A stretch of 64,000 bases of DNA from Naegleria gruberi (lineage: Eukaryota), in the NCBI GenBank assembly GCA_000004985.1, contig GG738851.1. One strand, given 5' to 3'. Positions 1,500 to 46,231 of the stretch are shown in pieces. Both the position numbers and the translations under genes were made by a program. The notes under the pieces are model-generated. The model saw only the letters and a list, made by a program, of their open reading frames with translations. It searched no databases and was not told where the DNA came from. Position 1 is the stretch's first letter, and each line of letters starts with the position of its first letter.

Positions 1500-2663
1500 T
1501 CAACACAACATTGCCGGCTGCAACATTCGAATAGTTGTGTGTGGTGCAGTTGAAACTGTATTCGAAACTGTTGAAGAATCCTTGTTTCTCCCAACACTGT
1601 GATTCACCACTGTTGAACCAACACAAACCAGATGTTTCACCCTCGCCGATAACATCTTCATCTCTTCATATCCAATTTTACAGTAAGAAAGGTTTAAATT
1701 GATTAATTTGTTTAGGTGGAAACTTTCAGCAATGAATTGTGAGCTTTCTGGACCTAATTTACAAAAGGTCAGGTTTAAATTGGTCAGATTGGAAAGGTAG
1801 GGACTAGAAGATAATTGTTTTGTACCATTATCAGTAATTTCACAATGAGAAAGGTCTAGGTGAATTATATTCGAAAGGTTTCGGCTATTGGACAAGGATT
1901 TGATTCCTTCAAGACCAACTTGGGAGAAAGTTAGATCGAGATGAGTTAGTTGTGTAATGAATTGACTTTGGGAAAGTTGTTTGGCGCCTTCATCTCCTAC
2001 CAAACAGTTTCGTAAATTGAGAGAAAGTAGACGAAAGAAATTTGGAGATGAAGATAAATGATAGAGAGCTTCAGGAGTAAGAGAACAATCGCATAGATCC
2101 AATACTTTCAGATGGGAAAAGTTTGTTGATTGGCAAAGTAATTTGACTCCATCTACACCTATCAAACAACCAGAAAGAATTAGAGACGAAAGTAAACGAA
2201 TGTTTGGACTATCTGCAAGAATTTTGATTTCTTGAGAGGTTACTCTGCATCGAGTTAAATTCAAGTGTTGAAGAGATTTCATTGATGGAGAGGATGAAAT
2301 TAATTCCAAGGAGTTTCCAATAATTGGGACGAAACTGAAATCTAACCTTTGTATACGAAGACAAGTATCAAATCTTTCACTTTTCAAAGTTTCCTCGAAT
2401 ATACTTGCTGCTCTCCTTGTTTTCACTCTAATAGAGAATGGTACTTTCCAACAAGATTCGTACCATTGTTTCGAAATTAAACTACACTTTCCAATAATTA
2501 TTTCAGATGGAATATACTTCAATATTTCAATAATAATTTCATCAGGAATATCAATCAAAACCTGATAATTCCTCTGATAGCTCTTTGTTTGTTGTTGATC
2601 AACAACATGTTTCGAATAACATTGATCCATTTCGTATGATGTTTTCTTTACCAAGTGCATCAA
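1500..2663 (-). CDS. F-box / leucine-rich-repeat protein
   Basis: ATG at 2663 (MMHLVK). N-terminal F-box-like segment IIIEILKYIPSEIIIGKCSLISKQWYE. Repeated LRR units of the cysteine-containing LRR type (LDLSHCEITDNGTKQL, LNLTFCKLGPES, LDLCDCSLTPEAL). Single long ORF. Confidence 0.6.
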   Translation of the reverse strand: MMHLVKKTSYEMDQCYSKHVVDQQQTKSYQRNYQVLIDIPDEIIIEILKYIPSEIIIGKCSLISKQWYESCWKVPFSIRVKTRRAASIFEETLKSERFDTCLRIQRLDFSFVPIIGNSLELISSSPSMKSLQHLNLTRCRVTSQEIKILADSPNIRLLSSLILSGCLIGVDGVKLLCQSTNFSHLKVLDLCDCSLTPEALYHLSSSPNFFRLLSLNLRNCLVGDEGAKQLSQSQFITQLTHLDLTFSQVGLEGIKSLSNSRNLSNIIHLDLSHCEITDNGTKQLSSSPYLSNLTNLNLTFCKLGPESSQFIAESFHLNKLINLNLSYCKIGYEEMKMLSARVKHLVCVGSTVVNHSVGRNKDSSTVSNTVSTAPHTTIRMLQPAMLC

Positions 2664-2988: not shown

Positions 2989-3062
2989 TACAGCGAGCGG
3001 GGCTTGAACCCGCGACCTTAAGCGTGTTAGGCTTACGATCTAACCAACTGATCTATCGCTGC
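2989..3062 (-). tRNA. tRNA-Val (anticodon AAC)
   Basis: Reverse complement reads GCAGCGA-TA-GATC-AGTTGGTTA-GATC-G-TAAGC-CTAACAC-GCTTA-AGGTC-GCGGG-TTCAAGC-CCCGC-TCGCTGT-A. This gives a cloverleaf with a 7-bp acceptor stem (G1-U72 wobble), a D-arm, an anticodon stem TAAGC/GCTTA with loop CUAACAC (anticodon AAC), and T-arm GCGGG/CCCGC with loop TTCAAGC. No intron. Confidence 0.9.
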
Positions 3063-3748: not shown

Positions 3749-6523
3749 TTGGCCCTGTATATATATCATGGATTTATGAATTTATTTGTTCTCACTATTA
3801 CTATTACGACAATAGACTTTTATCTGCTTAAAAAAATGAATGAACATGCAATTCTCACCACTCGTCTCGCCAACGCTCCCTACAAAATCTTCGACTGGGA
3901 TCAAGAAGAGCCTCCTCTCTCTCATGAAAAAGTCATTGAAAACCACTACACTGCTGATGAGATTATTGATGAAGGTATTTCTCCAAATGAATATGGAAGG
4001 GCAAAGTTTATTTCCGAAGCCTTGATGATTGAAAATAGTGGTGTAACAAGACCACCAACAAGTCATGAAGATGATGAACCAAAGTTTTGGAGGAGAAAGG
4101 ATTTGTTGATTCCTGGAAAATCAATTCAAATTTCTTCAAAGATTACGACGGTGCAATTGTTGAACGAGGAAGAGCCTATTGAAGAAAGTGATGATGATTA
4201 TGAGGAAGATGGTTTTGAAACAATGGTCAATCAAGATCGTTGTATTTATATTGGAAGCATACTGTCCGAAACAGAATGTAGTGATTTGATTGATTCCACA
4301 TCAAGATTGGGATATGAGAAAATTGATAAGGAATATCCAAAGGAATATCTTAATAATGAGAGAGTTTTGGTCAAGAGTAAGAAACTTGCAGATATAATTT
4401 GGTCTCGAATTGTTCCATTCTTGAAAAAGTCTGATATTGATGGTGTGAAACCTTATGGTTTTGATAATGATGGTTGTTGGGTTCCTTGTGGAATTAATGA
4501 AGTTTTAAGATTCAACAAGTATAGTCGTGGAAGTTTCTTTAAACCTCACACTGATGCTCAATTCGTTAGAAATGATAATGAAAAATCAATCTTTACAGTG
4601 TTGATCTATTTGAGCTCCTTTTCTTCAACTACAACCTTTTTCCAAAAGGTTGGAGAGAAGATTGAGGATAATAATATTTCTTTTGATTTCAAACAGTTGG
4701 CGTGCATCGACTCAAAAGAAGGAAGTGTTGGTAAGTTGAACAGATTATTGCTAAATAATAATTTAAAGCCATATTTAACCATAATCTCTATCATGCCGGC
4801 GAAAAAATGGCTTATGGATCAAAGTATGTTGTGAGAAGCGAAATTATCTTCAAGAGAATTGATAAGGATAGTATTTATAGTATGGATTATAGAAATAGTG
4901 AAGAATTCAAACGGGTAAAGAAACTCATTGATGATAGCTACGAGTTGGAACGTCAAGGTAATTTAACCCAATCCACCATCAAATATGTCCAAGCTATGGA
5001 CTTGTCCCACTCCATTCAAAAAAAATCAAATAGAAAATTGAGTTTTATTGAAGAAAATCTTCCTGAAGAGATATTCGTTCACATATTTAACTATTTAACA
5101 GATGAAGAGGTCTGTAAAAGTGTCATTCCTATCAATTCTGAAATTAATTCAATTGCTAGATATGAAAACATGTGGGAACAAAGATTTTCTAATAAGTGGG
5201 GATCTAACACATTGGAAAAGTCAATCCTTGATAGAGCTATTAGCGTTAAATACGGTGAAAATTATGAACCTACCAATGAAGAGAAGATTGTATTTCATAG
5301 TAAGGAAAATGAAATTATCAATCTTCTTCAAAAAGATTGGTATAATGCATTTTCAGCCAGATCAAATATGGAAAAATCTTTCAATGCTGTACTTTTAGAT
5401 CTTGGACAACATACTTACAAGTATGGATTAGCAAGTAATAATACATATTGGAGATCAATGACAGCTGTCGGTGAACCTAATCATCCTGACTTTTATTTAC
5501 CATCCTATGGATTTGACGACGTTCTAACAGGGGATAGATTTTTTAACGCTCAATACCATTGTGGATTGAAACCGTTCTTTAACTCTAAAGGAGTACCCAA
5601 GAAGAAGTTGTTCAAAATATTCCTTTATCAGCTCTATAAGGAAGATTTAAGAGTTAAATTACAAGAACATCCTCTTCTCATGGCTGTTCCTCCTCACTGG
5701 GATAAAGAATATTTGAAAAAGGTAGAACAGGTTGTGGTAAGTTTTCTATATTGAAAATTATATTTAAATTCATTGATAGTTTTCTTTAGGTATTCCAGCA
5801 GTTCACTTTGTAAACTCGTTCAAGTTACTTGCATTGTATTATCAAAAACCAACATCCTTAATTCTTAGTGCAACACCATATGGATCGACATGTGTACCAG
5901 TTGTAGATTGTGAGGTTAAGACTGCATGTATGGATATGAATGTGTTTAACATGTACGAGAAGAATAGGAATATGAATAAGGATATGAAATATTTTGAAAT
6001 GACTTTCTGGGCGAAGGTATCAGAATTTTTGAAAATTGCCCCTTGCAGTCCTAGCCAAGATCAACAAGAATTCAATGAATTTGCACAAAACGTTGAACCT
6101 TTCGAATGGATTCCACACCACATGGTTTCACCAGCCAATCAAAGAGCCAATATTTCGGAATTTTTCTATTCTCATGTATGGGAAAATGTACAAAAATCAA
6201 TTACCTTAATTCGTAATCATCAATCTCTTTCCAATATCGAAAAAGAGCTAATGCTAAACAATATTGTAATAGTTGGTGGATTCTCAGCATTGACAGGATT
6301 TAGAGAAAGAATCAAGAAGGACATTTTGGAATATCTTGGAAATGAATACTCTCCATCATTTACTTTTAGAGAGCATAAGGTTGATTATTCTGTCAGAAAA
6401 ATAGGTAACAAGGTCAGCATTGTTGGACAAGATATGGACGTAGTTGGAGGAGCTAGAATTGTTTCCAATCTCTCAAACTTTAGAGAAATTTGTAGTTACA
6501 AGCAAGTAGATAACAAGTGTTAA
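3749..6523 (+). CDS. Multi-domain protein read as one frame: P4H-like 2OG-Fe(II) oxygenase domain, then F-box, then a complete actin-related (Arp) domain. Model: join(3749..4730, 4769..~5740, ~5790..6523).
   Basis: Exon 1 (3749..4730) carries a P4Hc-like motif (FFKPHTDAQF ... TVLIYL). A GTAAGT donor at 4731 and an AG acceptor at 4767-4768 define a 38-nt intron and join in frame to 4769. The spliced product (...GSVAIFNHNLYHAGEKMAYGSKYVVRSEIIFKR) aligns to the C-terminal His-His / KYVLRTDI region of the paralogous P4H-like gene at 37597..38364 (RVLLFVHRLLHEAEPVGEPWQFKYVLRTDIMYRR). This supports the splice and makes the ATG at 4807 an internal Met. The frame then runs on without a stop through an F-box (LPEEIFVHIFNYLTDEEVCKSVIPINSEINSIARYENMWEQRF) and an actin fold: DLGQHTYKYGLA...EHPLLMAVPPHWDKEYLKKVEQ, a second short intron near 5737-5790, then IPAVHFVNSFKLLALYYQKPTSLILSATPYGSTCVPVVDCE ... 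NIVIVGGFSALTGFRERIKKDILEYL. The strongest donor of intron 2 (GTAAGT at 5737) is one base out of phase with the nearest acceptors; the weaker GTTTTC donor at 5741 with the AG at 5788-5789 restores frame. An alternative model of two adjacent genes (3749..4834 and 4807..6523) cannot be excluded without transcript data. Confidence 0.45.
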
Positions 6524-7342: not shown

Positions 7343-10300
7343 TTAAATTTCCAGTTTGGCTTGTTTGAGTAGATTTTCCTTGTAATTTACAATTTCTTGA
7401 TAGGTCTTGAATTGTTGTGTAAAAATGAATCTAGAAAGAGTATCGCTCAGATTGAAACGAATTTGATTTTGAAGAGATTCTATTGATTCTGTGATTGATT
7501 CTTTCAAACCTTGTGGGAAGTTCATTGTCTTTTTACTTCCCATATTTTCTGCACTTTCTAATTCAACATTCAAATTATCTACAGAATCTAATCTCTTGAC
7601 TAGAGATGCGAATAATTTAGAGCAATCTGATGAAATATTAACTTCTTTCAAGGCTCCCATCTGAATATAAGTAACATAAATATGATTAATGACAGTTTTG
7701 ACTTGTTGGAAATCATTCAAACTTTCAAGAATGTTTTGGTTATTTCTGAGTTCCAAATATAATTGTAAATTTTCGAGTGAATATTCTTTTTCACAGAACC
7801 ATTCAAATAATTTCAAACCTTCACTATGCTCAATGAGCTTTCTAATATCGTCATCATCATCCTGTTTCTCCAATTGTTTTTTCTTGAATTTTTGAATGAT
7901 TAGAATAACCAAAGAGTAACCACCAAACACAAACAAATAACTAAACATGTACAAAATGTCAAACAGTAATGAGATGGAATCATTCAAGAGCAACATCTTT
8001 AGGGAATTTTCTTTTCTGAATGACAATCCTGACAGGCCAATGATTTGTGAGATTACCAAACACGTAAAACACATTACAAATAGACACATTTCAGCTCTAA
8101 AGTAAAGTGGTGAATCCAACCTTGTAAAAGCTTCACGAATTCCATATAGTGGCATTCTTAGAGCTTTTTTAGTTGCTGTGAAATTTTCAAATTTTTCTAA
8201 ACTCTTGCCAGTTATTAAATCATTTAAGGAAAAGTTGAGATTTGTTTTTTCATTATTCTCCTGACCTTGTTGTATAATTTCTCTTTCTTTTCTCTTTGAT
8301 ACGCATGTCATTATTAATTCTAATCCAATAATGCAACAAGTGATGAATCCTAATAAGAGAATGGAGCAGGTAAAGGAGATAGAAACAATATGAGTATAGG
8401 TCAAGCTTGTAATAACCCCAACACGAATAAGAATTACCCATAATACCCAATAAATCACATTCAGTGAAATGAAAAGACACATGAGTATTAGCATTACTCT
8501 TGTTGAAAGGAATAATTTTGTCAACTTGAGAATAGTTTCACCCTTTGGCTCTTTAGAATGGAACATAATATATATTTGATGATAAAAGTATTTCAGTACT
8601 TGGAATCTCACAACTTGATATAAATATGAAAAAAAAGCCGTTAGTGTCATTGTGTTTACAATAATTGTAAAAATATTGGAAATAATATTAGCAACCAAAT
8701 CACCATTCTGTAATTGAATAACTGTTGATTGACTTTGTTCAAAATCCTGCTGATTGCCAATAACACTATTGGCATAGCCCAGTAAAATTCCTCTCTGAGT
8801 GATTAACAGCATTGAACATTCAATAATGAGAGCTGTTATTCCAATATAAGGCGTAATAAATCTACTTCTTACTAGAATTGATTTTCTAAAGGTAACCAAA
8901 AGTGTAAGTATTGTAAGTGAAAGAAGCAAGAATAAACTACCAAATGAAATTTGGGCAATGTAGAGAGAGGAAATTTGCCTGAGATATTCAGTAGATGATG
9001 GGGTTTCTTGTTCAATAAATGCTGCAAAGAGAGTAGCATGATTACATTGGCAGATTAACTGATTAGTTTTGTTGTTAAAACTGAAAATTGAACATCCGTG
9101 GCTTTCCCATCTTTGGTTTGTTTCGTTCCAAAATTGACAACTTAATAACGAAGAATTCGAAATGGAAGAGTTAGTATCTATAGTGAATGTGATGTAAATA
9201 GGATCTCTTAGGTCGGATAAAGAGATTTGTGAACCAGATTTGTACATTGTAAATTCTTTTGATTTGGTTAATTGTGTGGAATTTCCATTGATATATAAAT
9301 TTTCATCAAATGTAATAAGAGACAAACCAATTTCGGAATAATAACCATCATATTTCGAAAGTATATAATCTGTAGCAAAGGAAACATCATTATATATTTG
9401 AGAAATGGTTCCAGTGTTAGATGTTTTGAAAAAGCTTGTAGTTGTTATGTTGATTAGATGTGAAATATAGGAATTAGGCACCATTGAATCTGAATAAACC
9501 TTTGCGTTTTGCTGACTGAGGATAATGGAAGATAATTGATTGCAGATATTCGATATATTAACGTATCCATTCAGCAAAATATTGCTCGTAGTTGATAATG
9601 TATTGAAAAGGTCAGTATCGGACATTCTTTGCTTGGATATAAACCCATTTGAATTCTTTTCAATTCTAACTTGTTCATATACTTTGGACAAGTACTCGTC
9701 TAATTTAGAACTCACTATGTAAGCTGATTTTGTTTCCAAGGAACTTGATGTTAATTGATTAATGACAGAAAGTGTCAAAGAAGGATTTTCGAATTGAATG
9801 TTAATGCTTCTAATGGATTCGTAAAGAATATCTGTATTTTGATTTGCTGATTGATCATATGGTACAATATTGGCCAAAACATTGTTAAGCCTAATTCTCA
9901 AAATCAAATCGTTCAAATCCTCAGAGTTTGGGATCACTTTCACAGAGCCAATAAATTCAGGATATTCATTAAAGAGACTATCTCTACAAATGACATATAA
10001 ATTAATTGAACTAAATGACATGTCATTTGTTCGATTATTTTGAATGAAAGGAAGATAGGTGGTGAGAGAGCTATTAGTGGAAAACTCACTCAGTCTAATC
10101 AAACTGTTCTCTCCAAATGAGTTTATGAACTCGAAACCGAAAGAGAACTCAAGATTGCCAAGAATGGGATCTGGTACTATCCAATTATTTAAATCTTCTT
10201 GAATTGTGAAAAGTGATGAAAGAGCCATACCTGATTGAGGTAAAATGGTGGCATTCGAATGGATTCTTTGGGGTGGTGAAATTAAAGGAAAACTCTCAAC

Positions 10301-13300
10301 AAATTCTACAGATTCTGTTATATTCATAGAGTTGTGGAATTTGACACTTAAAGTAACATTTCCTTGAAGTGAAGATGTAGTTCCTTTCAAGGAAAGAATA
10401 GGTCTAAACGAAAGTTTGAATAGTCCATTGGAAACCTTTCCATGATAATAAGCTATCAAAGATTCTGGCACATAAAAACTAGTTTGATTACCATCACTTA
10501 TTTTCCAAGAATACTTTAAATTTGTCCAAGTACAATTCGTGCAATTATTAGAATTAATAATCGATTCAAAATCTCCCTTTTTAAGAATCACAGAAACAAT
10601 GGACATATAAAATGAATTACTAGTTCCCTTAACAAAACCAGCAGGTTTTCCAATGATTTCTAATGACCTTTCTTCTCTACATTCGTTTCCAACAAATTTC
10701 ACTCCTTCATGACACTTGCAAGTATCAATTCCAATACATTTTCCATTTCCTGAACACACATTCGGATCATTAGATAGTTTTCCAAAGCAGGATGTTAAAT
10801 TACAGACTAATCCTTCTGGTGATTGAGTAAGGATATAGTATTCTTCTTTACAATAAGGAGAAAGCATTCGTATACGGTCATTGCCTGAATCTGAAAATAT
10901 TATTCTACCGTCGCTCAATACTGATAAACCCTGTGGATTGTTAAGATATGCTTGTTTAGCATCGGAATCTCCATTGAATCCTGCTGTTCCATTACCAGCT
11001 ATTATTGTACTATAGCCATTTAAATCTACTTTTCTAATGACATTGTTGTTGGTGTCAGCAATCAACATTTCGCCATTTGACATGTAAGTGAATGAGATAG
11101 AATAACCAAAGGTTGTATTTGTAGAAAAGGTTGTTTGATTCAATAACATTGAATCAATAACGTAACCACATTCCTTTTTCCCTGCTACTCGAGTCAAAAT
11201 TCCAGTTCCTGAAATATTAGTTTTCAATATACTACATCTGTCACTAAAAACTAGCTCATTATTCCTTATTTTCATATCGTAAATGTCTAAACTAGTATAG
11301 TTTGTTGGTACATTGTCTTCCATTTCCACATAATTGTAATTACCAGCAAATGTTGTAATAATTCCACTTGAGAATGAAACTTTTCTAATTCTATAAAAAC
11401 TATCTGACAGATAAATTTCATTATCAGTGAGGGCTAATGCTCTCACAAACCCAACGTAAGCATTGACAGCTAATCCATTATCACCAATACCACCTGCAAT
11501 AGTTTTAACAAAACCAAATGGTGTAACCTTTCGAACTCTATAAAAATCAGTATCACTAAATATCAATTCATTTGTAAATGGAGAAAATGCCACTCCAAAT
11601 GGATGGTTGAGGTTTGTACTAGTTGCCTCCAAATCTCCAGAAAATGGAGGTTGGACAACTCCTTTGGCTCCAGTTCCAGCCACGTTATACACCACATCTG
11701 ATCCATAATTCATCTTTTTGATAATGTGGTCAAGATATACAGCAACGAAGAGATCACCATTTGGAGAGAAGATAATTTGTGAAGGAAAGTTTAAACATGT
11801 TTTGTTTGCATAGCTTGTAGTACTGAAACCAGTGCATCCAGGAATATAGCCAATAACTGTCTTGATTAATCCCTTACTATCAATTTTTCTAACCATAAAT
11901 GAGTTCATATCTGAGAAGTAAATTTCATCTGTAATTGGGTGAACTGAGATTCCAAAAGGTGCTATATTGGTTGCTAGAGCAGCAAGACCATCTCCATTAT
12001 AGGAATAAACCCCAGTCCCAGCAATTGTTGTTATTAGACCAGTACTGTTACTAATCTTTCTAATTCTGTAATTTTCAGAGTCACAGAAAATAATATCACC
12101 ATTAGTTTCGTTGTAATAAACTCCTGTTGGCCCATTTAGAGGGGCAATAATTGCAGGACCCCCATCTCCACTATAACTACGGACACCAGTACCAGCGACG
12201 GTGGTTACTTGATTCGTCTTGGCAGTGAACTTTCTAATTCTTTGATTGTTTAGATAGTTGCCAAAAAACAGCATACCATCGCTTATAGAATCAGAAATTA
12301 ACAAATCGCCATTCGATAGGCAAGTGATGGCAGATGCAAAACCTATCCTGGCAGTTAATGCATCCCCATCTCTGTATCCTGATACTCCATCTCCAATGAA
12401 TGTTGAGATTATGCCATTCGAATCAATCTTTCTAATAACATAATTTCCAGCATCCACAATGTAAATATCACCTGTTGGACCAACACAAACACCTCTTGGT
12501 TGTGACAATTGAGAATAGATACCTTGATAACCATCACCAGCTAAGGTTGTCCTTGTTCCAGCAATAGTGACAGCTCTTTGATCGCTCTTTCTCAGTTTCA
12601 TAACCAAATTTTCAGATCCAACGTAAATGTCACCATTTGATAGAGATTGTACAACTGATCGCGGATAAATTACATCTGTTTCATTTCCAAAATTACCATC
12701 TGCAGAATACGCTCTATTACCAGTACCTAAAATTGGTTCAATCTTTGAGGAAGTATAATTTGATAGAGAATTCAATCTTATAACTCTGCTATTTCCCCAA
12801 TCAGCAATCAGTAATTCATCAGTTTGAGAATTGTAAAAAGTTCCTCTTGGTCTATACAAAGCTACAGAGCTTCCAACAATACCCATATATTTTCTCAAGC
12901 CATTTCCTGCTAATGTTGTAATTATTTTTGTATCCAAATCTATTCTACGTATTCTAAAATTGGAAGTGTCTGCAACGTACAAGAATCGTCCAGAAATAGC
13001 CAATCCTGTTGGATTATTCAAAGTTGCATTGATAGCAAGACCTCCATCTCCACCAAAAGCAGCCACTCCAGCATCGTTGGCCACAACTGTACGTACACTA
13101 TTCGAAATCTTTACAATTTGATGAGTTGACTCTGCCAAGTAGAAGTCTCCAAATGAGTCAAAAACCATTCCAATTGCCCCATTTGTACCACTATACAATG
13201 TGAATATTCTTCCTTCATTGGTGATTCTTCTGACCCTGCCAGTTTCTTCCAAATAAATTAATTCTCTAGTTAGTGGATGGAAAGTTAGAGTCAAAACCTT

Positions 13301-13981
13301 TGCAATACTTGCACTCGCTGCAAGAGATCCTTCTGGTGTATTTTTGTCCTCCACGCCTGTTCCTGCTATGGTATAGATGGTCCCATTAACTATCTTTCGT
13401 ATCGTATATTTGTAAGTATCACTAACATAAATTACATCATTTGCTTCATCAACTAGCAAACCAAATGGAGCACCCAGTTTGGCATCCAATGCAGAAATAT
13501 TACTCGAAAGATTTGAACCACCACCAGCTAGTAAGAGCATTGTATCTTGGCCATAGGAATTTTTATAGACCTTTCGAAGAGTGTTTTCATCTGTAAAGTA
13601 AACCTCTCCTTTAGAATTCACTGCTACACAAAATGGCCAATGAATTGAAGTGGTGGCAGGTGTGGGTCCTTTTGGAAAGTTTGTAGAATCAAAATTATAA
13701 TTGGGATTTCCAGCGAGAAAGTAAGAGTTTCCATCTGGTTTAATGTATCTGATCTGATTGTTTAAATAATCAGAGTAGTATATATTTCCAGTAGTGGAAG
13801 AAATAGCAATAGTTTGTGGCCAAAACATGCCAACAGTTAATGCGTTTTGCCCATCTCCATTAAATCCTCCAAGTAGTGTTGTTATCTTGTAGTTAACATT
13901 TGATGCAGTAGATTGGTCTCCTTTGGCGTTCGCTAGCAGAAGTAAGACAAAGATATACGTCATAAGATTAGAACATGACAT
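7343..13981 (-). CDS. Giant single-exon receptor (2212 aa): signal peptide, about 20 NHL-type beta-propeller repeats, EGF-like module, GAIN/GPS motif, 7 TM helices, C-terminal RGS domain
   Basis: ATG at 13981 followed by a hydrophobic signal sequence (MTYIFVLLLLANAKG). A long run of about 40-aa repeats contains the NHL signatures (YVSDTYKYTIRKI, FYLAESTHQIVKI, LYVADTSNFRIRRID, IYIVDAGNYVIRKID, IIFCDSENYRIRKI, IYLSDSFYRIRKV, LIADTNNNVIRKVD, IIFSDSGNDRIRML). EGF-like module CNLTSCFGKLSNDPNVCSGNGKCIGIDTCKCHEGVKFVGNEC. GPS motif CQFWNETNQRWESHGCSIFSFNNKTNQLICQCNHATLFAAF. Seven hydrophobic helices follow (from LYIAQISFGSLFLLLSLTILTLLV onward). The C-terminal RGS fold reads LFEWFCEKEYSLENLQLYLEL ... 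IYVTYIQMGALKEVNIS ... FIFTQQFKTYQEIV. The ORF is uninterrupted. Confidence 0.8.
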   Translation of the reverse strand: MSCSNLMTYIFVLLLLANAKGDQSTASNVNYKITTLLGGFNGDGQNALTVGMFWPQTIAISSTTGNIYYSDYLNNQIRYIKPDGNSYFLAGNPNYNFDSTNFPKGPTPATTSIHWPFCVAVNSKGEVYFTDENTLRKVYKNSYGQDTMLLLAGGGSNLSSNISALDAKLGAPFGLLVDEANDVIYVSDTYKYTIRKIVNGTIYTIAGTGVEDKNTPEGSLAASASIAKVLTLTFHPLTRELIYLEETGRVRRITNEGRIFTLYSGTNGAIGMVFDSFGDFYLAESTHQIVKISNSVRTVVANDAGVAAFGGDGGLAINATLNNPTGLAISGRFLYVADTSNFRIRRIDLDTKIITTLAGNGLRKYMGIVGSSVALYRPRGTFYNSQTDELLIADWGNSRVIRLNSLSNYTSSKIEPILGTGNRAYSADGNFGNETDVIYPRSVVQSLSNGDIYVGSENLVMKLRKSDQRAVTIAGTRTTLAGDGYQGIYSQLSQPRGVCVGPTGDIYIVDAGNYVIRKIDSNGIISTFIGDGVSGYRDGDALTARIGFASAITCLSNGDLLISDSISDGMLFFGNYLNNQRIRKFTAKTNQVTTVAGTGVRSYSGDGGPAIIAPLNGPTGVYYNETNGDIIFCDSENYRIRKISNSTGLITTIAGTGVYSYNGDGLAALATNIAPFGISVHPITDEIYFSDMNSFMVRKIDSKGLIKTVIGYIPGCTGFSTTSYANKTCLNFPSQIIFSPNGDLFVAVYLDHIIKKMNYGSDVVYNVAGTGAKGVVQPPFSGDLEATSTNLNHPFGVAFSPFTNELIFSDTDFYRVRKVTPFGFVKTIAGGIGDNGLAVNAYVGFVRALALTDNEIYLSDSFYRIRKVSFSSGIITTFAGNYNYVEMEDNVPTNYTSLDIYDMKIRNNELVFSDRCSILKTNISGTGILTRVAGKKECGYVIDSMLLNQTTFSTNTTFGYSISFTYMSNGEMLIADTNNNVIRKVDLNGYSTIIAGNGTAGFNGDSDAKQAYLNNPQGLSVLSDGRIIFSDSGNDRIRMLSPYCKEEYYILTQSPEGLVCNLTSCFGKLSNDPNVCSGNGKCIGIDTCKCHEGVKFVGNECREERSLEIIGKPAGFVKGTSNSFYMSIVSVILKKGDFESIINSNNCTNCTWTNLKYSWKISDGNQTSFYVPESLIAYYHGKVSNGLFKLSFRPILSLKGTTSSLQGNVTLSVKFHNSMNITESVEFVESFPLISPPQRIHSNATILPQSGMALSSLFTIQEDLNNWIVPDPILGNLEFSFGFEFINSFGENSLIRLSEFSTNSSLTTYLPFIQNNRTNDMSFSSINLYVICRDSLFNEYPEFIGSVKVIPNSEDLNDLILRIRLNNVLANIVPYDQSANQNTDILYESIRSINIQFENPSLTLSVINQLTSSSLETKSAYIVSSKLDEYLSKVYEQVRIEKNSNGFISKQRMSDTDLFNTLSTTSNILLNGYVNISNICNQLSSIILSQQNAKVYSDSMVPNSYISHLINITTTSFFKTSNTGTISQIYNDVSFATDYILSKYDGYYSEIGLSLITFDENLYINGNSTQLTKSKEFTMYKSGSQISLSDLRDPIYITFTIDTNSSISNSSLLSCQFWNETNQRWESHGCSIFSFNNKTNQLICQCNHATLFAAFIEQETPSSTEYLRQISSLYIAQISFGSLFLLLSLTILTLLVTFRKSILVRSRFITPYIGITALIIECSMLLITQRGILLGYANSVIGNQQDFEQSQSTVIQLQNGDLVANIISNIFTIIVNTMTLTAFFSYLYQVVRFQVLKYFYHQIYIMFHSKEPKGETILKLTKLFLSTRVMLILMCLFISLNVIYWVLWVILIRVGVITSLTYTHIVSISFTCSILLLGFITCCIIGLELIMTCVSKRKEREIIQQGQENNEKTNLNFSLNDLITGKSLEKFENFTATKKALRMPLYGIREAFTRLDSPLYFRAEMCLFVMCFTCLVISQIIGLSGLSFRKENSLKMLLLNDSISLLFDILYMFSYLFVFGGYSLVILIIQKFKKKQLEKQDDDDDIRKLIEHSEGLKLFEWFCEKEYSLENLQLYLELRNNQNILESLNDFQQVKTVINHIYVTYIQMGALKEVNISSDCSKLFASLVKRLDSVDNLNVELESAENMGSKKTMNFPQGLKESITESIESLQNQIRFNLSDTLSRFIFTQQFKTYQEIVNYKENLLKQAKLEI

Positions 13982-23681: not shown

Positions 23682-26600
23682 TTATTTTTTGATACCATAA
23701 CCACCTCCACCTGGTGTTTGAATAATGACACAATCTCCTGGTTCGACCTTGAAAGAGTTCTTTCCTCCTAGAGAGTGAATGAGACCTCTCTTGAGAATGA
23801 GTAAATTCTTTCCTTTTTGTCCATCTTTTCCACCTCTACAACCAGATGGTGAGAAGACTCTTCTCTCTGAGAGAATTCCAACTTGAAGTGGTTCAAGGAA
23901 TTCAACTTCTCTCACAACGCCATTTCCTCCTCTGAATTCTCCTTCACCTCCTGAATTTGGTCTCACGCTGAACTGTTTCAGAATGAGCGGATATCTTCTT
24001 TCGAGAATTTCAACATCGGTAATTCTGGTATTGGTCATGTGGGTGTGAACAGAGTCTTCTCCTTGATAGTCCTTTCCAGCTCCAACACCTCCACAAATAG
24101 TTTCATAATAGCCCCATGATTCATTACCGAATGTGAAATTATTCATGCATCCTTGACTACAGGCAGCTGCTGAGAATGCCTTAAGAATAACATCGGTCAC
24201 TCTTTGTGAGGTCAATACGTTACCTGCTACTACACCGACGATACCATCTTCACCAATATCTAAAAGTGAGTGTTTTTCAATCTTGATTGAGATTGGTTCC
24301 AGACATCCTTGATTGAGAGGAATGTCCTGTTTGACAAGACATCTCAAGCTGTACAAAATTGCAGAAATAGTAATGGCCTTTGGTGCACTAATTGACAAAT
24401 AGTTAGAATAATTGAAAAATTGATAGAGAATACTTACTTGGTATTACCTAAAAAATTTCAATTTCATGTAATATTCCAATAGTTAGTTCAATAAAAATTA
24501 AGAGCTTGGGTTAAAATAATATAATAATAAGCTACAAACCCAACATCATTTCTGAAGTTCCTGTGAAATCAAAGATTGCAACATGTTGCTTTTCAGAGCC
24601 GTTTCTAAAGTTTTCATGTTTTTGATTTTTGATTGTCAAATGCAAGTTGATTATTGATCCGTCATCCATAAAATCTTGGGAATGCAAGTCAATGCTGGCA
24701 GCATTCTTATCTTGTGAGTGTTCCTCAAATACTTGTTGCAACATTTCCTTGACTGCGTATTCTGCATTGTCCTGAACATATTGCATATAGCTTTGGACAA
24801 CTTCTAATGAATATTCATTGATGAGTTCTTGCAAAAGTGAAATACCTTTAGTATTAGAAGCAACTTGAGCTTTCATATCTGAAATATTATCCTTTATGGC
24901 TCTGGCACCTGCTTCTTTCAATAAATTTGTAATTCTCTCTTCTTGGAATTCACCATTTTCTACTAATTTACATGAAACAATTGCCATACCCTCCTCAGAT
25001 AGCAATCTACTGAATGGAGGCATTGAACCTGGCTGAATACCACCAATGTCAGCATGATGTCCACGATTGGCAACATAGAAAGCTACTTTTCCATTTGAAT
25101 ATACAGGAGTTATTACGGTAATGTCAGGCAAATGGGTGCCTCCAGCACAAGGGTGATTGGCTACAATTACCTCGCCTTCCTTCCAACTATCTCCCAGAGT
25201 TCTAATTTGATATCGAACTGCCTCACTCATTGAACCCAAGTGAACAGGCAAGTGTGGAGCATTGGCAAGGAGAGAACCATCTGGAGAGAAGAGAGCACAT
25301 GAAAAATCGAGTCTTTCCTTAATATTGGTTGAAGTTGATGTTCTTTGGAGGGATCTACCCATTTGTTCAGCAATACTCATGAAACGATGATTGAAAATAC
25401 TCAACCTAACAGCATCAACCTTCTTCAATTCATTCACATTGATTTCTTGTGTCTTTGTTGAGGAGAGAGTAATTTCCACATCACCATACTTGGTAATTAG
25501 AGCTGTTCCATGTGGTTCAACAACAATTGTAGTTGTGTCGTGAATAATAATAGCAGGGCCGTGAACCTTATCTCCAGCAGCCAAATGTTGCAAATCATAG
25601 ACAGCTGTCTCAGTCCAACCTTGTTCAAAGTATGTCTTGGTTGAGGTAATTGGTTTTGGCTCAGACTTAGATGAAGCAATTTCAATCTTACTGATGGATG
25701 GTGTAATACCAATACCTCTCACTCTAATATCATCGACAATGATTGGTCTTCCAACAACAGTAAATCCATATTCTCTCTTGTAGGATTTTTCAAATTCAGA
25801 TCTGTAATCTCCTCCAAGGATTGAATCTTGTTGCTTGGCCTCCTCTGGAACAGATGTCATGATTGAATAGTCGGTTCCCTTATACTTGAGATTGAGATAA
25901 TGTACAATTTTGATGTTGGAGTTGTCAAATCCAGAGTTTTTCAATCTCTCAACAACTCTTCCCTCGATTTCTTTCAATCTGTTGGAGAAGTATCCGAAAT
26001 TTTCCTCAGCATATTCTGCAGTACTTGGCTCTTGTTCATCCAAAACAACATCAGCAAGTCCCAACCCATAAGCACTCAAAATACCAGATTGTCTTGGAAT
26101 GAAAACCTTTTTCATACCTAAATTATTGGCAATAGCTTGAGCATGTTGTGAACCAGCTCCACCAAATGAACACAAAGTATGATCACGAGTATCATAACCT
26201 TTAGAAACTGTAATGGAACGAATTGGTCTTGACATGGCCTCGTTGGCAACTTGAATGAAACCATAGGCAACTTCTTCTGTTGTTTTGAGTTTGGCATTTT
26301 GTGGATCTCTCTTCAATTCAAAATCATTGACTTGTTTGGTCAATTCTTCGAATGCAAGTTTGGTGGCTTCATAATCGAGTGGTTGATCTTCAGTTTCACC
26401 AAAAATTTTTGGGAAGAATTCTGGTAATAATCTTCCAAGGAATAAGTTGGCATCAGTAATGGCCAAATGTTTGATTGGGAATGATCCTTGCTTTCTATAA
26501 CAGACTGGACCAGGATTAGCTCCAACAGAACTTGGACCAACTATTTCACAATTAAGAATGCTATTCGTGAAAATACATACCTTCAAAGATACCTGTCTTT

Positions 26601-27951
26601 TGGTTGAATGTCAATTTGGAGCCACCTCCAGCAGCAACTGTTGTGATATCCAGTTGAGGTGCTTGAATTTGAACTCCTGCAGTTTCAGTTTCAAAAACCA
26701 AATCAAATTTTCCTCCAAATCTTGATACATCAGTAGATGTTCCACCAATATCAATTCCAATAATTGGGATTTTATCATCTGGATTGTAGGATGTTGATGC
26801 AATAGCAACGATTCCACCAGCTGGTCCTGATAATATGGCATTACATCCCTTAAAATCTGAAGCAGGTGTAAGACCGCCATTCGATTGCATGAATGTGACA
26901 CGTTTCAACAACTTATCAAAATCTGAAAATCCAGAACAAAAGTTTCTAACATAATCCCTAATAATTGGGCTCAAATAAGCATCAACGCAAGTAGTGTGAC
27001 CTCTTGGAACTGCTCTAATCATTGGCATGGCTTGATGAGAGAGTGAAATATTTTCAATTCCAGCTCTCTTTGCAATTTCAGCAATTTGAAGTTCATGATC
27101 AGCAAATGTATACGAATGCAATAAAACTACAGCAATGCTATTAATTCCACTTTCTTTCAACTCTTTACAAGTATTATAAACAAATTCTTCATCCACAGTA
27201 TTTCTAATAAAAACTTCCTCTCCTGAAATACCCTTCTTTAATCTTTGATTTCTCCATTCTTCAGTAGAAAGTTGAGATCCTTCTGGTTCTTGGAATTTCT
27301 TACATTTTCCATAAACTTGCTCTGTGAGACAAACTCTTTCATCCACCTCAATCACTCTTTCATATAAAAGTGAAGGTTTTCTAATAAATAATTCGAAAAT
27401 CTTTGGACGTGCCTGATGTCCAATTTTAAGCAAATCACGAAATCCTTTCGTTGTAATCAAGGCACATCTAGATCCCTTTCTTTCTAGCAAGGCATTAGTA
27501 GCCACAGTGGTTCCCATTCTAATATATTCAATGTTATCAATATCAATTTCTTTAGCATCCTTCATTTGAAGTCCCAAAACTTTGTTCATTATTCTCTTAA
27601 TTCCTGAAATAATTTCATCACAAATGCAATTTAAATATTAATATTCAATATTATTACAAAAATATTAATCATAATATTACCTTCTCTCGGAGCATCATTA
27701 TAATGTTGTGGATCTTCACTCAATAACTTCATAACCACATAGGGTTGATAATTGTTATGAATTGTCTTGGGAACCTCTTCATCATCATGACGATCATCAT
27801 CGGAATTAAAAATCAAAAAAAAAATTAAATAATTCGTGATGCTGATGAAAACACAAACCTGCATAAATATCACAAAAGGTTCCTCCACGATCAATGGAAA
27901 ATCTGAATAATTGATTGGAAGCAGATCCACTACATTCGGAATTGTTGGACA
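23682..27951 (-). CDS. OPLAH: 5-oxoprolinase (ATP-hydrolysing), hydantoinase A/B family; join(27951..27859, 27776..27671, 27603..26581, 26540..24540, 24447..24438, 24387..23682)
   Basis: Exon 1 reads [31 protein letters not shown]. Exon 2 reads [33 protein letters not shown]. Exon 3 (hydantoinase A) reads [10 protein letters not shown]...[32 protein letters not shown]... Exon 4 reads [19 protein letters not shown]... plus the hydantoinase B region ([17 protein letters not shown]..., [12 protein letters not shown]). Then comes a 10-nt micro-exon GTAATACCAA, then exon 6 reading [30 protein letters not shown]...CMNNFTFGN...PGGGGYG. Introns are 82, 67, 40, 92 and 50 nt with GTTTGT, GTAATA, GTATGT, GTTTGT and GTAAGT donors. 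The order and spacing of conserved blocks follow metazoan 5-oxoprolinase throughout. Confidence 0.85.
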
Positions 27952-34818: not shown

Positions 34819-37467
34819 ATGTATGATCATTGGGTAGGTATACCTATTCTACTACTCTCTTCACTATCATTACGCTAGAAATACGACAGAGATCAAGTCC
34901 TCCGAATAACTCTCAACAATGGCTTTTATCTACAATATGCTGATGATAAATTTAAAAAAGATAAAGATCTTGTGTTACAGGTAATTTCTCGGTACGGAAG
35001 GGGACTCGAATTCGTAGACGAATCCCTGAAAAAAGATAAGGAGGTTGTTCTTGCAGCTGTCAAACACGATGGCTTTGCACTTAAATTTGCTCATCATTCA
35101 TTGAAAAAAGATAGAACAATAGTTTGGGAAGCAATTTCACAAAATGGAAATGCTCTTCGTTTCGCTGATGCAATATTTCAAAATGATAGAGAAATTGTGT
35201 TGCGATCGGTGAGAATCGCTGGCGGAGCATTACAACATGCCAGTGATTTGTTAAAAGTGGATCATCTAGTTGTGTTTGAAGCAGTCAAACAGAGTGGACA
35301 TGCTATTCAATTTGCGCACTCATCATTTAAGAAAGATAGAGAGCTGGCATTGAAATGTTGTAAAATAGGAGATAATTCATTTGAATATGTAGATGGATCA
35401 TTCAAGAAAGAAAGAGAGTTCGTATTGGAATCTGTTAAAAGTTTTGGAACAGCTCTTTTGCATGTACATGAACCATTTAAAAAAGATAAGGAAATAGTTT
35501 TTGAAGCTATCAAACAAAGTCCAAGTGCATTCTTCAGTGCTGATGATTCATTTAGGAAGAAAGACAGAGAATTTATATTGAAAGTCGCCAAGTGTGATGA
35601 GGGTGCAATTTATTGGACAGATTATTCTATCCAATCAGAGACATTATTTGCATTTATCTACTCGTTTAGCTTGAAAGCTGATCAAAAAGAATGGATAAAG
35701 GGTCTAAATTCAACGCTATACGAAAATATCGAGAAAGCCAAGGCTGAATCAATTCAGACATGTTTATCTAGAGATGTTATTGGAATGTATTCGAACAAGT
35801 TTTCTGAGGAAGCTTATTTATTTTGTTGCTTGGCTTTACCAGACACTTATCCTAAACCTGTAGGAAATATATTCAATTTCAATCAATCGTATTCTAGTCA
35901 ATTTGTGGAAAAACTGATTATTGTACAAATTTTGAAGAGTATTAGTTCATTGGATTCAACTTGCAGCGCATCTGTCAGTAAGACAATAGATTATTACTTG
36001 TTTTTATTCAAGTTAGACAGATTTTTAGACGAATCTAATGTTAAATCAACCAATTATTCCAAGCTTGGATCTGTTGTTATGGAAATTTCATCAAAGTTTG
36101 AAACATCATATTACTCAAAAACTGATATTGGAATTGCATTATTATTTTTCAAAGATTGGATCAGCAGATTTAAACATTTCGATGATCACCGAGAGACATT
36201 AGCTCAATACAAGCAAGTTGGAGGTGATTTCTCAAAAATTATGCGAGTTATCACGCAATTTCATTACTATTCAAATAATGATTATGATGTTGTTTCAGTA
36301 CTAGGATATGGAGGCGAAGGAGCTGCTTTTAAAGCATTTAGTAAGAAATTGAATGAATTGGTGGCCATCAAAATCAAATTTGAGAAGGAAGATGAAAAAA
36401 GCAGCGAGGAAAGAATTCAATTTATCAGGAGAAATGATATTGAAGGTAAAATCAAATGCCACGATTGTAATTTGATTGATGGTTACATGTATTCTATCAT
36501 GGAATTGGGAGAAGAGACATTATCTGATTATATTGATAGAAATAGAACTTATTATCAAAATAAGCAATATTCGAAAGAGCATTTTATTGAGATTCTAATA
36601 ATATTTAACAAGATTTTACAAGCAGTCAAATCAATTCATGACCATAATATTTCACATAGAGATTTGGATCCTAAAAATGTAGTCAAAGTGAAAGATCGTT
36701 ACAAAATTATTGACTTTGATATTGCAAAGGTCATCAAAACAGGTAATTCTATCACCCTAACTGTTGGAAAATTTGCATACATGTCACCAGAAGTGTCACA
36801 CGACAATTACAGCGAGGAAATGCTCAATAACGAAGACAAGCTTTCAAATAATATTGGAAATGTCACAACATCATGTGATATCTTCTCATTGGGATGTATT
36901 TTATTGAAACTCTTAACAAACTGTAGTTTGAGATTGGATAGAGAATTCGTAACTGTTATCAACAACTTTGAGAAATATGATGGAAATTATCAATACTTTA
37001 CAGATAATGGATTTTATTTCTATTCAATATTGATTGATTTGTTAAAGGAAAAGAAATTACATCACGCCATTCAACAGACAGTGAACCAGTTCGTGGATCC
37101 TGAATGGGAAGTTAATGAAATACTTATCAAGTGTTTAATAACAATGATTCAAAAGGATCCAACTCAAAGATTAGATTGTTTCATACATAGTAATGTCCTT
37201 ACAAAGGTAATCGATTTTTTAAAAGGTGAAAACAACATGACACTTAACCAAATTCTCAAAGATATGGAAAATTATAAGGAAATTAATGAATTGAAGGATA
37301 TTCCACAAATTATTGAAGAAAATGAGCAGCTTAAGAATGAAAATGTTGAGCTGAAGAGAATGATCGAAAATCTAGAAGAGAAAAGTCGAAAGGATAAGGA
37401 AGAAAATCAAATGCTAATGAAGAAGTTAGAGGAAATGGAGAAACGAACCAAAGAGCTTGAAAAATAA
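34819..37467 (+). CDS. DUF4116-like (~38-aa) repeat array fused to a degenerate protein-kinase domain and a C-terminal coiled coil; join(34819..34833, 34879..37467)
   Basis: Mini-exon ATGTATGATCATTGG with a GTAGGT donor and a 45-nt intron ending AG at 34877-34878. The frame with the alternative GTG start at 34972 stays open upstream and encodes further repeat units, so the gene starts upstream of that GTG. About 6 tandem units follow with the pattern DKEVVLAAVKHDGFALKFA / DREIVLRSVRIAGGALQHA / DRELALKCCKIG... Kinase motifs present: GYGGEGAAF (Gly loop) and VAIKIK (VAIK). The catalytic loop is HRDLDPKN, where Asp replaces the usual Lys. DFD replaces DFG. YMSPE is present. The C-terminus is an E/K-rich coiled coil. 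Confidence 0.65.
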
Positions 37468-37596: not shown

Positions 37597-38364
37597 ATGA
37601 ACAAAATCTCAAGAGGGTTAATCACCACAGGTAACAAGAGATTCTTCTCATCCACTTGCATGAACAAAAGTAAACCAATTGTTGAATTCAAAGAAATTCA
37701 GAAGGGACAAATATGGTTAATTGACAATTTATTTTCTGAAGAGGAATGCAAATCCTATATTGAATTGGCTGAATCGCAAGGATTTAATGATGCACCAGTC
37801 ACAGTTGGTGCTAATACTTTCAAAATGATGACAGATTACAGAAATAATAAGAGAGTAATTTTGGATGATCCTAACTTAGCTCAACAAATCTACACGAAAG
37901 TGAAAGATTTCGTTCCAGAATTTGCAAGTGAACTGAATGTCAATTCAAGAAAGATCAATACAGAATTCTTTCAAAAGTGTGGAGTGAACGAAAGATTCAG
38001 ATTTTACAGATATACCTCAGATGAGTATTTTAAAGCTCACTTTGATGGAAACTTTGCTAGAAACAACGTAGAGTGCACTCTTGAGAATGGAAAGACCTAC
38101 CTCTGTGAAGAATCTTCCTTCATAACCATGCTCATCTATTTAAACACTTTAGAGAAGGGAGGTGAAACAAATTTTGTGAATCCAGGTGGAGAAGAAAGAA
38201 TTCTTCACTCTGTGAATCCAAAAACAGGAAGAGTGCTATTGTTTGTCCATCGTTTGTTGCATGAAGCTGAACCAGTTGGAGAACCTTGGCAATTCAAATA
38301 TGTGTTGAGAACAGATATCATGTATAGAAGACCAATGGGTCTATTTTCATCATTTCATTGGTAA
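37597..38364 (+). CDS. Prolyl-4-hydroxylase-like 2OG-Fe(II) oxygenase (255 aa), possible N-terminal targeting peptide
   Basis: Motifs KAHFDG (HxD), GGETNF and LLFVHRLLHEAEPV...KYVLRTDIMY (distal His and the Lys/Arg of the 2OG-binding strand). The N-terminus MNKISRGLITTGNKRFFSS is basic and hydroxylated, like a presequence. Confidence 0.7.
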   Translation: MNKISRGLITTGNKRFFSSTCMNKSKPIVEFKEIQKGQIWLIDNLFSEEECKSYIELAESQGFNDAPVTVGANTFKMMTDYRNNKRVILDDPNLAQQIYTKVKDFVPEFASELNVNSRKINTEFFQKCGVNERFRFYRYTSDEYFKAHFDGNFARNNVECTLENGKTYLCEESSFITMLIYLNTLEKGGETNFVNPGGEERILHSVNPKTGRVLLFVHRLLHEAEPVGEPWQFKYVLRTDIMYRRPMGLFSSFHW

Positions 38365-46045: not shown

Positions 46046-46142
46046 TTTTTTTGTAAAGTTTTTAACAAAGAAGTTCTTGTTTCAATGTTAGTTCCTCAAT
46101 TTAGTTCTTATACGTATTCATATCTTTTTAAGATGATCGTAA

Positions 46143-46231
46143 GGCGGCTTAGCACAGTGGCAGTGCATCAGTCTTGTAGGCAGAAATGCTGAGATAACTG
46201 AGGGTCGAGGGTTCAATTCCCTCAGTCGCCT
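46143..46231 (+). tRNA. Intron-containing tRNA; anticodon reads UGU (Thr) under the standard 37/38 intron position
   Basis: GGCGGCT-TA-GCAC-AGTGGCA-GTGC-A-TCAGT-CTTGTA[GGCAGAAATGCTGAGAT]A-ACTGA-GGGTC-GAGGG-TTCAATT-CCCTC-AGTCGCC-T. All four stems pair. The 17-nt insertion sits where nuclear tRNA introns are located. Followed by TTT. Confidence 0.75.

Follow-up and report, generated by a model that had tools for sequence, protein, structure and literature searches.

A Naegleria gene predicted to join a prolyl hydroxylase-like oxygenase, an F-box and a divergent actin fold in one protein

The DNA considered here is a stretch of 64,000 nucleotides (nt) from Naegleria gruberi contig GG738851.1; this whole stretch, at its full length, is called the window below. 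The question is raised by positions 3836..6523 of its plus strand. Do the oxygenase, the F-box and the actin-related protein (Arp) that are encoded there in succession belong to one protein and, if they do, what might such a protein accomplish? A first-pass annotation of the DNA had preferred one fused gene over two genes with overlapping coding sequences, and this preference is upheld by the continuity of the second exon and by an architecture that is kept across genera and supergroups. Taking gene structure and domain content together, we are highly confident that the interval holds a single three-exon gene with a product of 868 amino acids (aa). As the best overall explanation of the locus we favor, with moderate confidence, this tri-domain gene encoding a hydroxylase that would be tethered to Skp1 and the SCF (Skp1-cullin-F-box) ubiquitin ligase machinery.

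Gene structure of the fusion locus

The gene is read as three exons separated by two very short introns, as follows.

3836..4730, plus strand: exon 1, with the start codon, the disordered N-terminus (aa 1-127) and most of the oxygenase, as given by the open reading frame (ORF) and its translation and by the end of a tblastn high-scoring segment pair (HSP) at 4732
4731..4768, plus strand: intron 1, 38 nt, GTAAGT...AAG, phase 1, 79% A+T
4769..5736, plus strand: exon 2, unbroken, running from the last oxygenase strands through a TPR-like linker, the F-box and a spacer to the first half of the actin fold
5737..5779, plus strand: intron 2, 43 nt, GTAAGT...TAG, phase 0, 84% A+T
5780..6523, plus strand: exon 3, with the second half of the actin fold and a TAA stop at 6521-6523

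The ends of the first intron can be read in the window (GTAAGT at 4731-4736, AG at 4767-4768). Excision of 4731-4768 preserves the reading frame, as had been proposed in the first-pass annotation: frame 2 is joined to frame 1, and the junction peptide runs from ...KEGSV through A into IFNHNLYHAGEKMAYGSKYVVRSEIIFKR. When four homologs (from N. gruberi, N. lovaniensis, N. fowleri and Willaertia) are compared with the window by tblastn, the alignments break at the same place, between 4732 and 4768. The proposed gain from this splice, a restored C-terminal strand carrying the distal His and the contacts to 2-oxoglutarate (2OG), is also seen, in that the distal His (H307) and the basic 2OG-binding residues (K317 and R321) are encoded only after the intron is removed. 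Left unspliced, the upstream ORF reaches a stop at 4834 with neither the distal His nor these basic residues. The ATG at 4807-4809, correctly taken to be internal, becomes M312 of the spliced protein; it lies within exon 2 and inside the last conserved strand of the oxygenase.

These observations bear directly on the possibility of two adjacent genes, one for a truncated oxygenase ending at the 4834 stop and one for an F-box-Arp protein starting at ATG 4807, with coding sequences that overlap by 28 nt. Mechanically, both unspliced ORFs exist, and ATG 4807 is a possible start. However, the oxygenase of such a pair would be deprived of its distal His and 2OG-binding K/R, and the residues that follow M312 (GSKYVVRSEIIFKR) correspond, in all homologs as well as in stand-alone relatives, to the final and conserved strand of the oxygenase. 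In N. fowleri (locus L001) the whole stretch, from the oxygenase C-terminus into the linker, is one exon: the peptide KEGAVAIFNHDLYHAGQRVRYGRKYVLRTELIFKRIDSESIYRMNYKQDQEYLRIKKLVDESNELEKQGK is encoded there without interruption, and the first intron is lacking. The fusion is moreover kept in more than 30 divergent proteins, some of them transcript-derived. Because exon 2 alone runs from the final oxygenase strands through the F-box and into the Arp, half of which it encodes, two independent overlapping genes are ruled out, and we give the two-gene reading very little credence.

The second break in the tblastn comparison falls near 5736 and 5780 (between 5718 and 5745 on the upstream side, depending on the homolog), and all four HSPs restart at 5780. 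The first-pass annotation had been undecided here between donors at 5737 (GTAAGT) and 5741 (GTTTTC); the ambiguity disappears once GTAAGT at 5737 is paired with the TAG at 5777-5779. Read as 5737-5779, the intron yields EQVVFSLGIPAVHF, in agreement with EQVAFSLGIPAVHF of N. gruberi, with junction peptides 'VVFSLGIPA' in the window and 'VAFSLGIPA' in N. gruberi. Two other pairings were rejected. GTAAGT (5737) with an end at 5789 is out of frame; GTTTTC (5741) with the same end is in frame yet gives 'VVVSIPA', at odds with the ortholog.

For the start of the gene, the TTG at 3749, the position from which the first-pass annotation counts its interval, gives way to ATG 3836, the likely start codon, from which the N-terminus 'MNEHA...APYKIFDWD' aligns with the protein starts of N. 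lovaniensis and N. fowleri. An alternative in-frame ATG at 3776, which would add 20 unconserved hydrophobic residues, is conceivable as a start.

The donor hexamer carries no weight of its own in this argument. In the window, which is 34% G+C, GTAAGT is found 20 times against 21.3 expected, and we dropped it as stand-alone evidence for an intron. Given this lack of enrichment, the case for the introns rests on frame joining and homology. We scanned the 64 kb for introns of 30-70 nt that are A+T-rich, have the form GT[AG][AT]GT...AG and join open frames; in this strict scan only five loci pass, and both introns of the fusion gene are among them. Another is a 40-nt intron on the minus strand (26541-26580, GTATGT...ATAG, phase 1), which fuses the ORFs 26561-27589 and 24532-26586, across the motif GIFE, into a hydantoinase/oxoprolinase of 1006 aa. 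Introns near 40 nt in length are thus normal in this genome, as the strict scan and this independent oxoprolinase intron show. Further candidates of 30-52 nt came from the frame-joining scan, at 386-437, 57154-57204 and 61349-61378, all on the minus strand.

The best match of the spliced product is a deposited N. gruberi 'predicted protein', which is 82-85% identical and has the same length of 868 aa. Judged by such homology, the window belongs to a Naegleria species near N. gruberi yet distinct from it. Divided by region, identity to this ortholog is 85% in the oxygenase, 95% in the linker, 90% in the F-box, 82% in the spacer and 87% in the Arp; the disordered N-terminus is 70% identical, against 82-95% for the folded domains. 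It is difficult to reconcile such a pattern with a locus that is decaying into a pseudogene or has been misassembled as a chimera. Once the two introns are removed the frame stays open for 868 codons, the catalytic residues are invariant, and many genomes and transcriptomes show the same architecture. We consider decay or misassembly next to impossible.

Domains of the predicted protein and distribution of the family

Structural statements about the protein come from an AlphaFold2 (AF2) model that was made from the N. gruberi ortholog as a stand-in for the window protein. Its aa 1-127 score below 50 in the predicted local distance difference test (pLDDT). The features that follow are all on the plus strand.

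4079..4123, plus strand: motif (P)KFWRRxDLLIPG, in the low-pLDDT N-terminus
4217..4881, plus strand: P4H (prolyl 4-hydroxylase)-like 2OG/Fe(II) oxygenase, aa 128-336, spanning intron 1
4547-4549, 4553-4555 and 4792-4794, plus strand: H238, D240 and H307, proposed Fe ligands (HxD...H)
4822-4824 and 4834-4836, plus strand: K317 and R321, proposed 2OG-binding residues
4882..5046, plus strand: TPR-like helical hairpin linker between oxygenase and F-box, aa 337-391
5047..5193, plus strand: F-box, aa 392-440, LPEEIFVHIFNYL...W
5329..6520, plus strand: divergent actin-fold (Arp) domain, complete, aa 486-868, spanning intron 2

The N-terminal motif is present in most Naegleria and Willaertia members of the alignment, although the region around it is poorly conserved, and we imagine that it may be a linear binding motif or a degron.

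Pfam family PF13640 matches the oxygenase domain in 11 of 11 aligned proteins (best E 4e-14). H238, D240, H307 and K317 are invariant and R321 nearly so in the Naegleria, Willaertia and Acrasis proteins, and the same catalytic pattern is kept in stand-alone relatives and in the fused members of Physarum, dictyostelids and chytrids. The domain has a double-stranded beta-helix fold that is most like that of prolyl hydroxylases. That it is P4H-like and probably catalytically active is therefore well supported. Among its structural neighbors, the collagen P4H of PBCV-1 (5c5t) has the highest value (17.7), followed by Pseudomonas putida PPHD (16.1), Trichoplax PHD (15.6), Chlamydomonas P4H (15.4), Dictyostelium PhyA (15.3), PiuC (14.9), OGFOD1 (14.5), P4H-TM (14.4) and PHD2 (14.2); Foldseek is consistent with this ranking. 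PhyA, the Skp1 hydroxylase, is thus fifth, with 14% identity. A profile of the oxygenase compared with sequences of solved structures retrieved neither PhyA nor PHD and found just the Bacillus anthracis and Chlamydomonas P4Hs, weakly. Orthology to PhyA or to the PHD (EGLN) enzymes was rejected on this combined structural and sequence ranking, and the Pfam search of the protein gave no JmjC match.

A stand-alone oxygenase paralog lies elsewhere in the window, separate from the fusion gene (37597..38364, plus strand, 255 aa, PF13640 E 4.9e-8). The first-pass annotation had aligned the fused domain with it, and the comparison stands: the paralog shares 29% identity with the oxygenase that is fused in the N. 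gruberi ortholog, tblastn identity at the locus is 26-29%, and both HxD...H and the K/R are retained. A word-indexed search with the oxygenase profile returned chiefly short metagenomic fragments and small stand-alone oxygenases.

The linker is conserved from Naegleria to Physarum, dictyostelids and chytrids. Its matches to TPR models are weak, and the AF2 model places helices at residues 337-354 and 358-375. The F-box that had been reported to follow, with no intervening stop, is recognizable across the family: PF12937 matches 10 of 10 aligned members (best E 1.4e-11) and PF00646 matches 8 of 10. When the family F-box profile is run against the PDB, it finds FBXL5 (2e-7), KDM2B (3e-6) and Cdc4 (3.9e-6), then FBXW7, Skp2 and others. 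By this family-level profile evidence the F-box is genuine. The model of the ortholog has F-box helices at 389-393, 396-403, 408-415, 420-426 and 429-440, with pLDDT of about 63-82. As expected of an F-box protein, the F-box is followed by a putative C-terminal interaction domain, here the actin fold (aa 486-868).

That a full Arp fold is present, split by the second intron, is seen by three approaches that between them cover the whole actin chain. Pfam Actin (PF00022) matches with E 5e-13 and 48.9 bits against a cut-off of 27; the family profile finds PDB actins with E 2e-20 across actin residues 1-336; and Foldseek superimposes the full-length model on whole actin chains with TM scores (target) of 0.75-0.82 over about 385 columns. 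The domain is only 16-20% identical to human beta-actin. It retains D11, G13 and K18 of the P1 loop and G301/G302 of the adenosine loop, and the P2 loop DSGDG is replaced, by SATPY (SATPYGST) in the window protein and by VGPSG, GRSQT or GMGHT in relatives. Q137 of actin is not conserved across the family, so that the canonical set of nucleotide-binding and hydrolysis motifs (P1, Q137, P2, GGT) is incomplete. ATP binding is uncertain and hydrolysis unlikely, judging from these residues; loss of the P2 loop and of Q137 conservation argues for a structural or binding fold rather than an ATPase. A motif of the family's own, [HS][PG]H[FY], lies in the D-loop region, where 5482-5493 encodes a conserved HP[HD]F, and a KDWY motif is found ahead of the actin fold. 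The best matches of the domain are conventional actins rather than any named Arp, and in sequence comparison it behaves as an orphan Arp.

The first-pass annotation had suggested a search for the same fusion in related species, and the fusion is found in Naegleria, Willaertia, Amoebozoa and chytrids. An initial search recovered the architecture from N. gruberi, N. fowleri, Willaertia magna and N. lovaniensis, the last with five paralogs; Acrasis kona has a truncated version. A profile search of 1.84 billion cluster representatives then gave 473 matches below 1e-30. Hidden Markov models for the four modules were run on the best 150 of these 473, and about 30 named representatives entered a survey of taxa. 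Among the best 150, about 36 have oxygenase, F-box and Arp, all but four of them with the TPR-like linker; 44 have oxygenase, F-box and in part the linker, with a C-terminus not seen by the Arp model; 29 have oxygenase and linker only; and 42 have oxygenase alone. Many sequences of the last two groups are short or partial.

All three Pfam domains were found in Physarum polycephalum entries labeled as transcripts; in Tieghemostelium, Cavenderia, Acytostelium, Dictyostelium purpureum and Dictyostelium cf. discoideum (779 aa); in an Arcella Trinity transcript; and in the chytrids Nowakowskiella and Rhizophlyctis. Since the Physarum and Arcella members are transcript-derived, the fusion is one mRNA in these organisms. 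The three also occur together, with actin scores below threshold, in the choanoflagellates Choanoeca flexa and Salpingoeca infusionum and in the centrohelid Pterocystis. In Dracoamoeba, Pfam recognizes oxygenase and actin and no F-box. The oxygenase-F-box part was found in the foraminiferan Bolivina and the amoebozoans Pyxidicula and Stenamoeba. Amoeba proteus has the oxygenase alone by Pfam, to which our custom models add the TPR-like linker. No member was seen in animals, plants or yeasts among the named matches, no systematic search of those groups having been made. The common linker and flanking motifs argue for a single old origin over repeated fusion.

Some members have peculiarities of their own. 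In N. fowleri (VFQX01000063.1, L001:5130-5160), the deposited protein P0004 (832 aa) is without an F-box, though frame +2 encodes one; a run of six A residues (gcgAAAAAAgta) makes a one-base frameshift, and in the gene model this part is skipped as an 'intron'. The likely cause is a homopolymer error of the assembly; the alternative is a genuine frameshift. P0063 (D. purpureum, 2127 aa) continues after the Arp into a lipase_3 domain, a STAND NTPase and TPR repeats, and may be a merged gene model. Additional N-terminal domains occur in P0040 (Pyxidicula, 974 aa; NADAR), P0041 (metagenome, 837 aa; ankyrin repeats) and P0055 (867 aa; rhodanese-like).

The gene model itself is not new, the proteins being already in public databases under names such as 'predicted', 'hypothetical', 'F-box domain-containing' and 'Fe2OG dioxygenase domain-containing'. 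The N. gruberi ortholog is deposited at the same length with its oxygenase and actin Pfam domains and no F-box recorded, and the value of our model as annotation is therefore modest. What stands out is a family that is large, conserved and unstudied in the literature searched.

Possible mechanisms

F-boxes are the Skp1-binding elements of SCF substrate receptors, in which a C-terminal domain usually binds the substrate, and actin-family proteins typically pair with other members of the actin family or with actin-binding proteins. We imagine that the F-box would dock the protein on Skp1, making it a subunit of, or subject to regulation by, an SCF-type cullin-RING ubiquitin ligase. Since the actin fold sits where F-box proteins carry a WD40, LRR (leucine-rich repeat) or Kelch substrate-binding domain, it could serve as the docking module; by analogy with Arp pairing, its candidate partners would be actin, Arps or actin-binding proteins. 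It would probably not hydrolyze ATP and would act as a structural or binding module. The oxygenase, if active, would use O2 and 2OG to modify a partner held in the complex by hydroxylating one of its residues, with proline as the likeliest target. Hydroxylation and association with Skp1/SCF would in this way be coupled in one polypeptide, and oxygen and metabolites would govern what follows, be it turnover of the bound partner or of the fusion protein. Taken as a whole, this mechanism falls, in our judgment, a little short of an even chance.

Several observations weigh against the proposal. The target residue and substrate cannot be read from homology, since collagen-type, PHD-type, PhyA, bacterial EF-Tu P4H and PiuC/YbiX-like enzymes all lie at about the same distance from the oxygenase. 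The F-box-like score of the window protein itself is 18.6-20.6 bits (E 4e-4 to 1.6e-3), under the cut-off of 24.3. The full-length AF2 model is moderate (pLDDT 64.5, predicted TM score 0.52, from 10 sequences), and the relative orientation of the domains is for that reason not readable from it. An extra short F-box-Arp isoform that starts at M312, without the oxygenase, is conceivable from the sequence. Finally, in JcdI/Fbxo13, a Dictyostelium JmjC non-heme dioxygenase with an F-box that binds Skp1 directly, the F-box is dispensable for the developmental effect of the enzyme (PMC9485057). An F-box, then, need not imply a substrate-receptor role.

One alternative is that Skp1 itself is the substrate, hydroxylated through docking of the F-box in the manner of PhyA, which acts on the Skp1 proline of Dictyostelium and Toxoplasma, with the Arp as an accessory. 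This was the idea put forward in the first-pass annotation, in which the enzyme docks on its substrate's partner, and it has not fared well: the domain is no closer to PhyA than to other P4Hs, and its profile passes over the PhyA and PHD structures. In SCF structures the modified Skp1 proline is also part of a C-terminal region overlaid by the F-box, which a stably docked enzyme would probably reach only with difficulty. Dictyostelium already hydroxylates Skp1 with PhyA, which is described without an F-box (PMC9485057), and yet D. cf. discoideum has the tri-domain protein too. We rank Skp1 as a substrate below docking through the actin fold and think it improbable.

A more serious rival is that the protein is not an SCF substrate receptor at all. 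Contact with Skp1 would then mainly stabilize the enzyme or control its level, as has been proposed for JcdI, or place it in a non-SCF Skp1 complex. Through its actin fold the hydroxylase would join an actin or Arp assembly, in the nucleus an Arp module or in the cytoplasm actin, where actin, Arps or their partners would be modified without ubiquitylation. The conserved [HS][PG]H[FY] motif of the D-loop and the retained fold-defining residues suggest an interface that is specific and conserved. Animal PHD3 reportedly hydroxylates actin, and the plant F-box-Arp protein ARP8 is, according to the title of a report on it, nucleolar. JcdI requires Skp1 for its solubility, and the effect for which its F-box is dispensable is one of sensitization to O2 (PMC9485057). 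Against this, the F-box of the fusion protein is retained across supergroups and is conserved as strongly as the catalytic domain (90% against 85% identity to the N. gruberi ortholog), which speaks for Skp1 binding as a core property of the protein and not a side effect. We find a role outside substrate reception unlikely on balance, and we retain the Skp1/SCF-tethered hydroxylase as the preferred reading.

Oxygen sensing through prolyl hydroxylation is usually divided between proteins. Animals use PHD to set the mark and VHL to read it; in protists, PhyA takes the place of PHD and acts on Skp1. One can envision that the P4H-F-box-Arp proteins instead form ancient, self-contained 'hydroxylate-and-ubiquitylate' modules, each an O2/2OG sensor on the SCF adaptor with an actin-mimicking substrate arm. 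Such modules would be common to Discoba, Amoebozoa and chytrid fungi, probably to choanoflagellates and possibly to other groups. We put this larger idea forward as a tentative one, rather unlikely as it stands. If true, it would mean that in amoeboid cells oxygen or metabolic state directly governs how actin, Arps or actin-binding proteins are turned over or modified. If the mechanism proposed above holds, a tethered hydroxylase would be a third way to wire hydroxylation to the SCF machinery and the first tied directly to actin or Arps. The architecture predicts Skp1 binding, 2OG turnover and an actin-family partner, and the fusion is kept across supergroups, with Naegleria, Dictyostelium, Physarum and chytrids available as tractable models. 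Should the mechanism prove wrong, the family would still be a sizeable and clearly constrained piece of the eukaryotic 'dark' proteome.

Neighboring loci and comparison with known systems

Three tRNA genes were located in the window.

2989-3062, minus strand: tRNA-Val-AAC, about 770 nt upstream of the fusion-gene start
46142-46232, plus strand: tRNA-Thr-TGT, 91 nt, long enough for an intron
59162-59242, plus strand: tRNA-Leu-CAA

Beyond the tRNA-Val gene, as seen from the fusion gene, lies a conventional F-box and LRR protein (1500-2663, minus strand; Pfam F-box 1.9e-7, LRR_6 6.9e-18); the window holds no evidence that this proximity has functional meaning. On the other side, a single ORF of 2212 aa (7343-13981, minus strand) encodes NHL/teneurin-NHL repeats, a GPS motif, a hydrophobic multi-span region and a C-terminal RGS domain. 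By its domain order this ORF is an adhesion-GPCR (G protein-coupled receptor)-like receptor fused to RGS, convergent with the fusion gene. Farther along, 31940-34786 (plus strand) encodes a PIF1-like helicase with a WWE domain at its C-terminus, and the adjoining gene at 34972-37467 (plus strand) encodes five DUF4116 repeats, then a protein kinase domain and a coiled-coil tail; both are uncommon combinations of domains.

The first-pass annotation had called the oxygenase-F-box arrangement provocative and the added Arp stranger still, which makes it seem more novel than it is. For the triple combination, no description of a P4H-F-box-Arp protein was found in the literature searched. The pairs have precedents: a dioxygenase with an F-box is known from JcdI and KDM2A/B, and an F-box with an Arp from ARP8.

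Kandasamy et al. (2008, Plant Cell Physiol 49:858) reportedly described Arabidopsis ARP8 as an F-box protein with an actin-related domain. Like the fusion protein, ARP8 would have its F-box directly N-terminal to the Arp, which would thus stand in the place of the substrate receptor; the likeness may be convergent. Plant ARP8 is not known to have an oxygenase domain, and a word-indexed search with a combined F-box+Arp profile for ARP8-like proteins returned only two known members of the present family.

Considered singly, the terminal domains also depart from their better-known relatives. The oxygenase is 12-22% identical to P4Hs of the PH subfamily (PBCV-1 vCPH, Chlamydomonas P4H, PPHD, PHD2/EGLN1 and PhyA) and is nested in none of them. 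Set against these enzymes, it has a conserved signature of its own (EYPKEYRNSERVL, PYGFxNxGxW), and, unlike the fusion protein, they carry no fused F-box and Arp. The actin domain resembles divergent or orphan Arps in its complete four-subdomain fold and in keeping D/G/K of P1 and the adenosine-loop GG. It differs from them in its low identity to actin, in the loss of the P2 loop and in not being free-standing.

The dioxygenase-F-box proteins come nearest. KDM2 proteins carry LRRs and DNA- or chromatin-reading domains. JcdI, KDM2A/FBXL11 and KDM2B/FBXL10 all place an Fe(II)/2OG dioxygenase and an F-box in one polypeptide, as the fusion protein does, and the KDM2A/B F-boxes in the PDB are matched by the family F-box profile. 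The catalytic domain of these proteins is JmjC, whereas that of the fusion protein is P4H-like (PF13640); the F-box of JcdI is N-terminal to the catalytic domain, whereas in the fusion protein the oxygenase comes first; and, unlike the fusion protein, neither JcdI nor the KDM2 proteins have an actin fold. JcdI binds Skp1 by way of its F-box, and its Km for O2 is about 22%, which is physiological (PMC9485057). JcdI/Fbxo13 is the closest experimentally studied design to the one proposed here, and the likeness is one of design, not of family.

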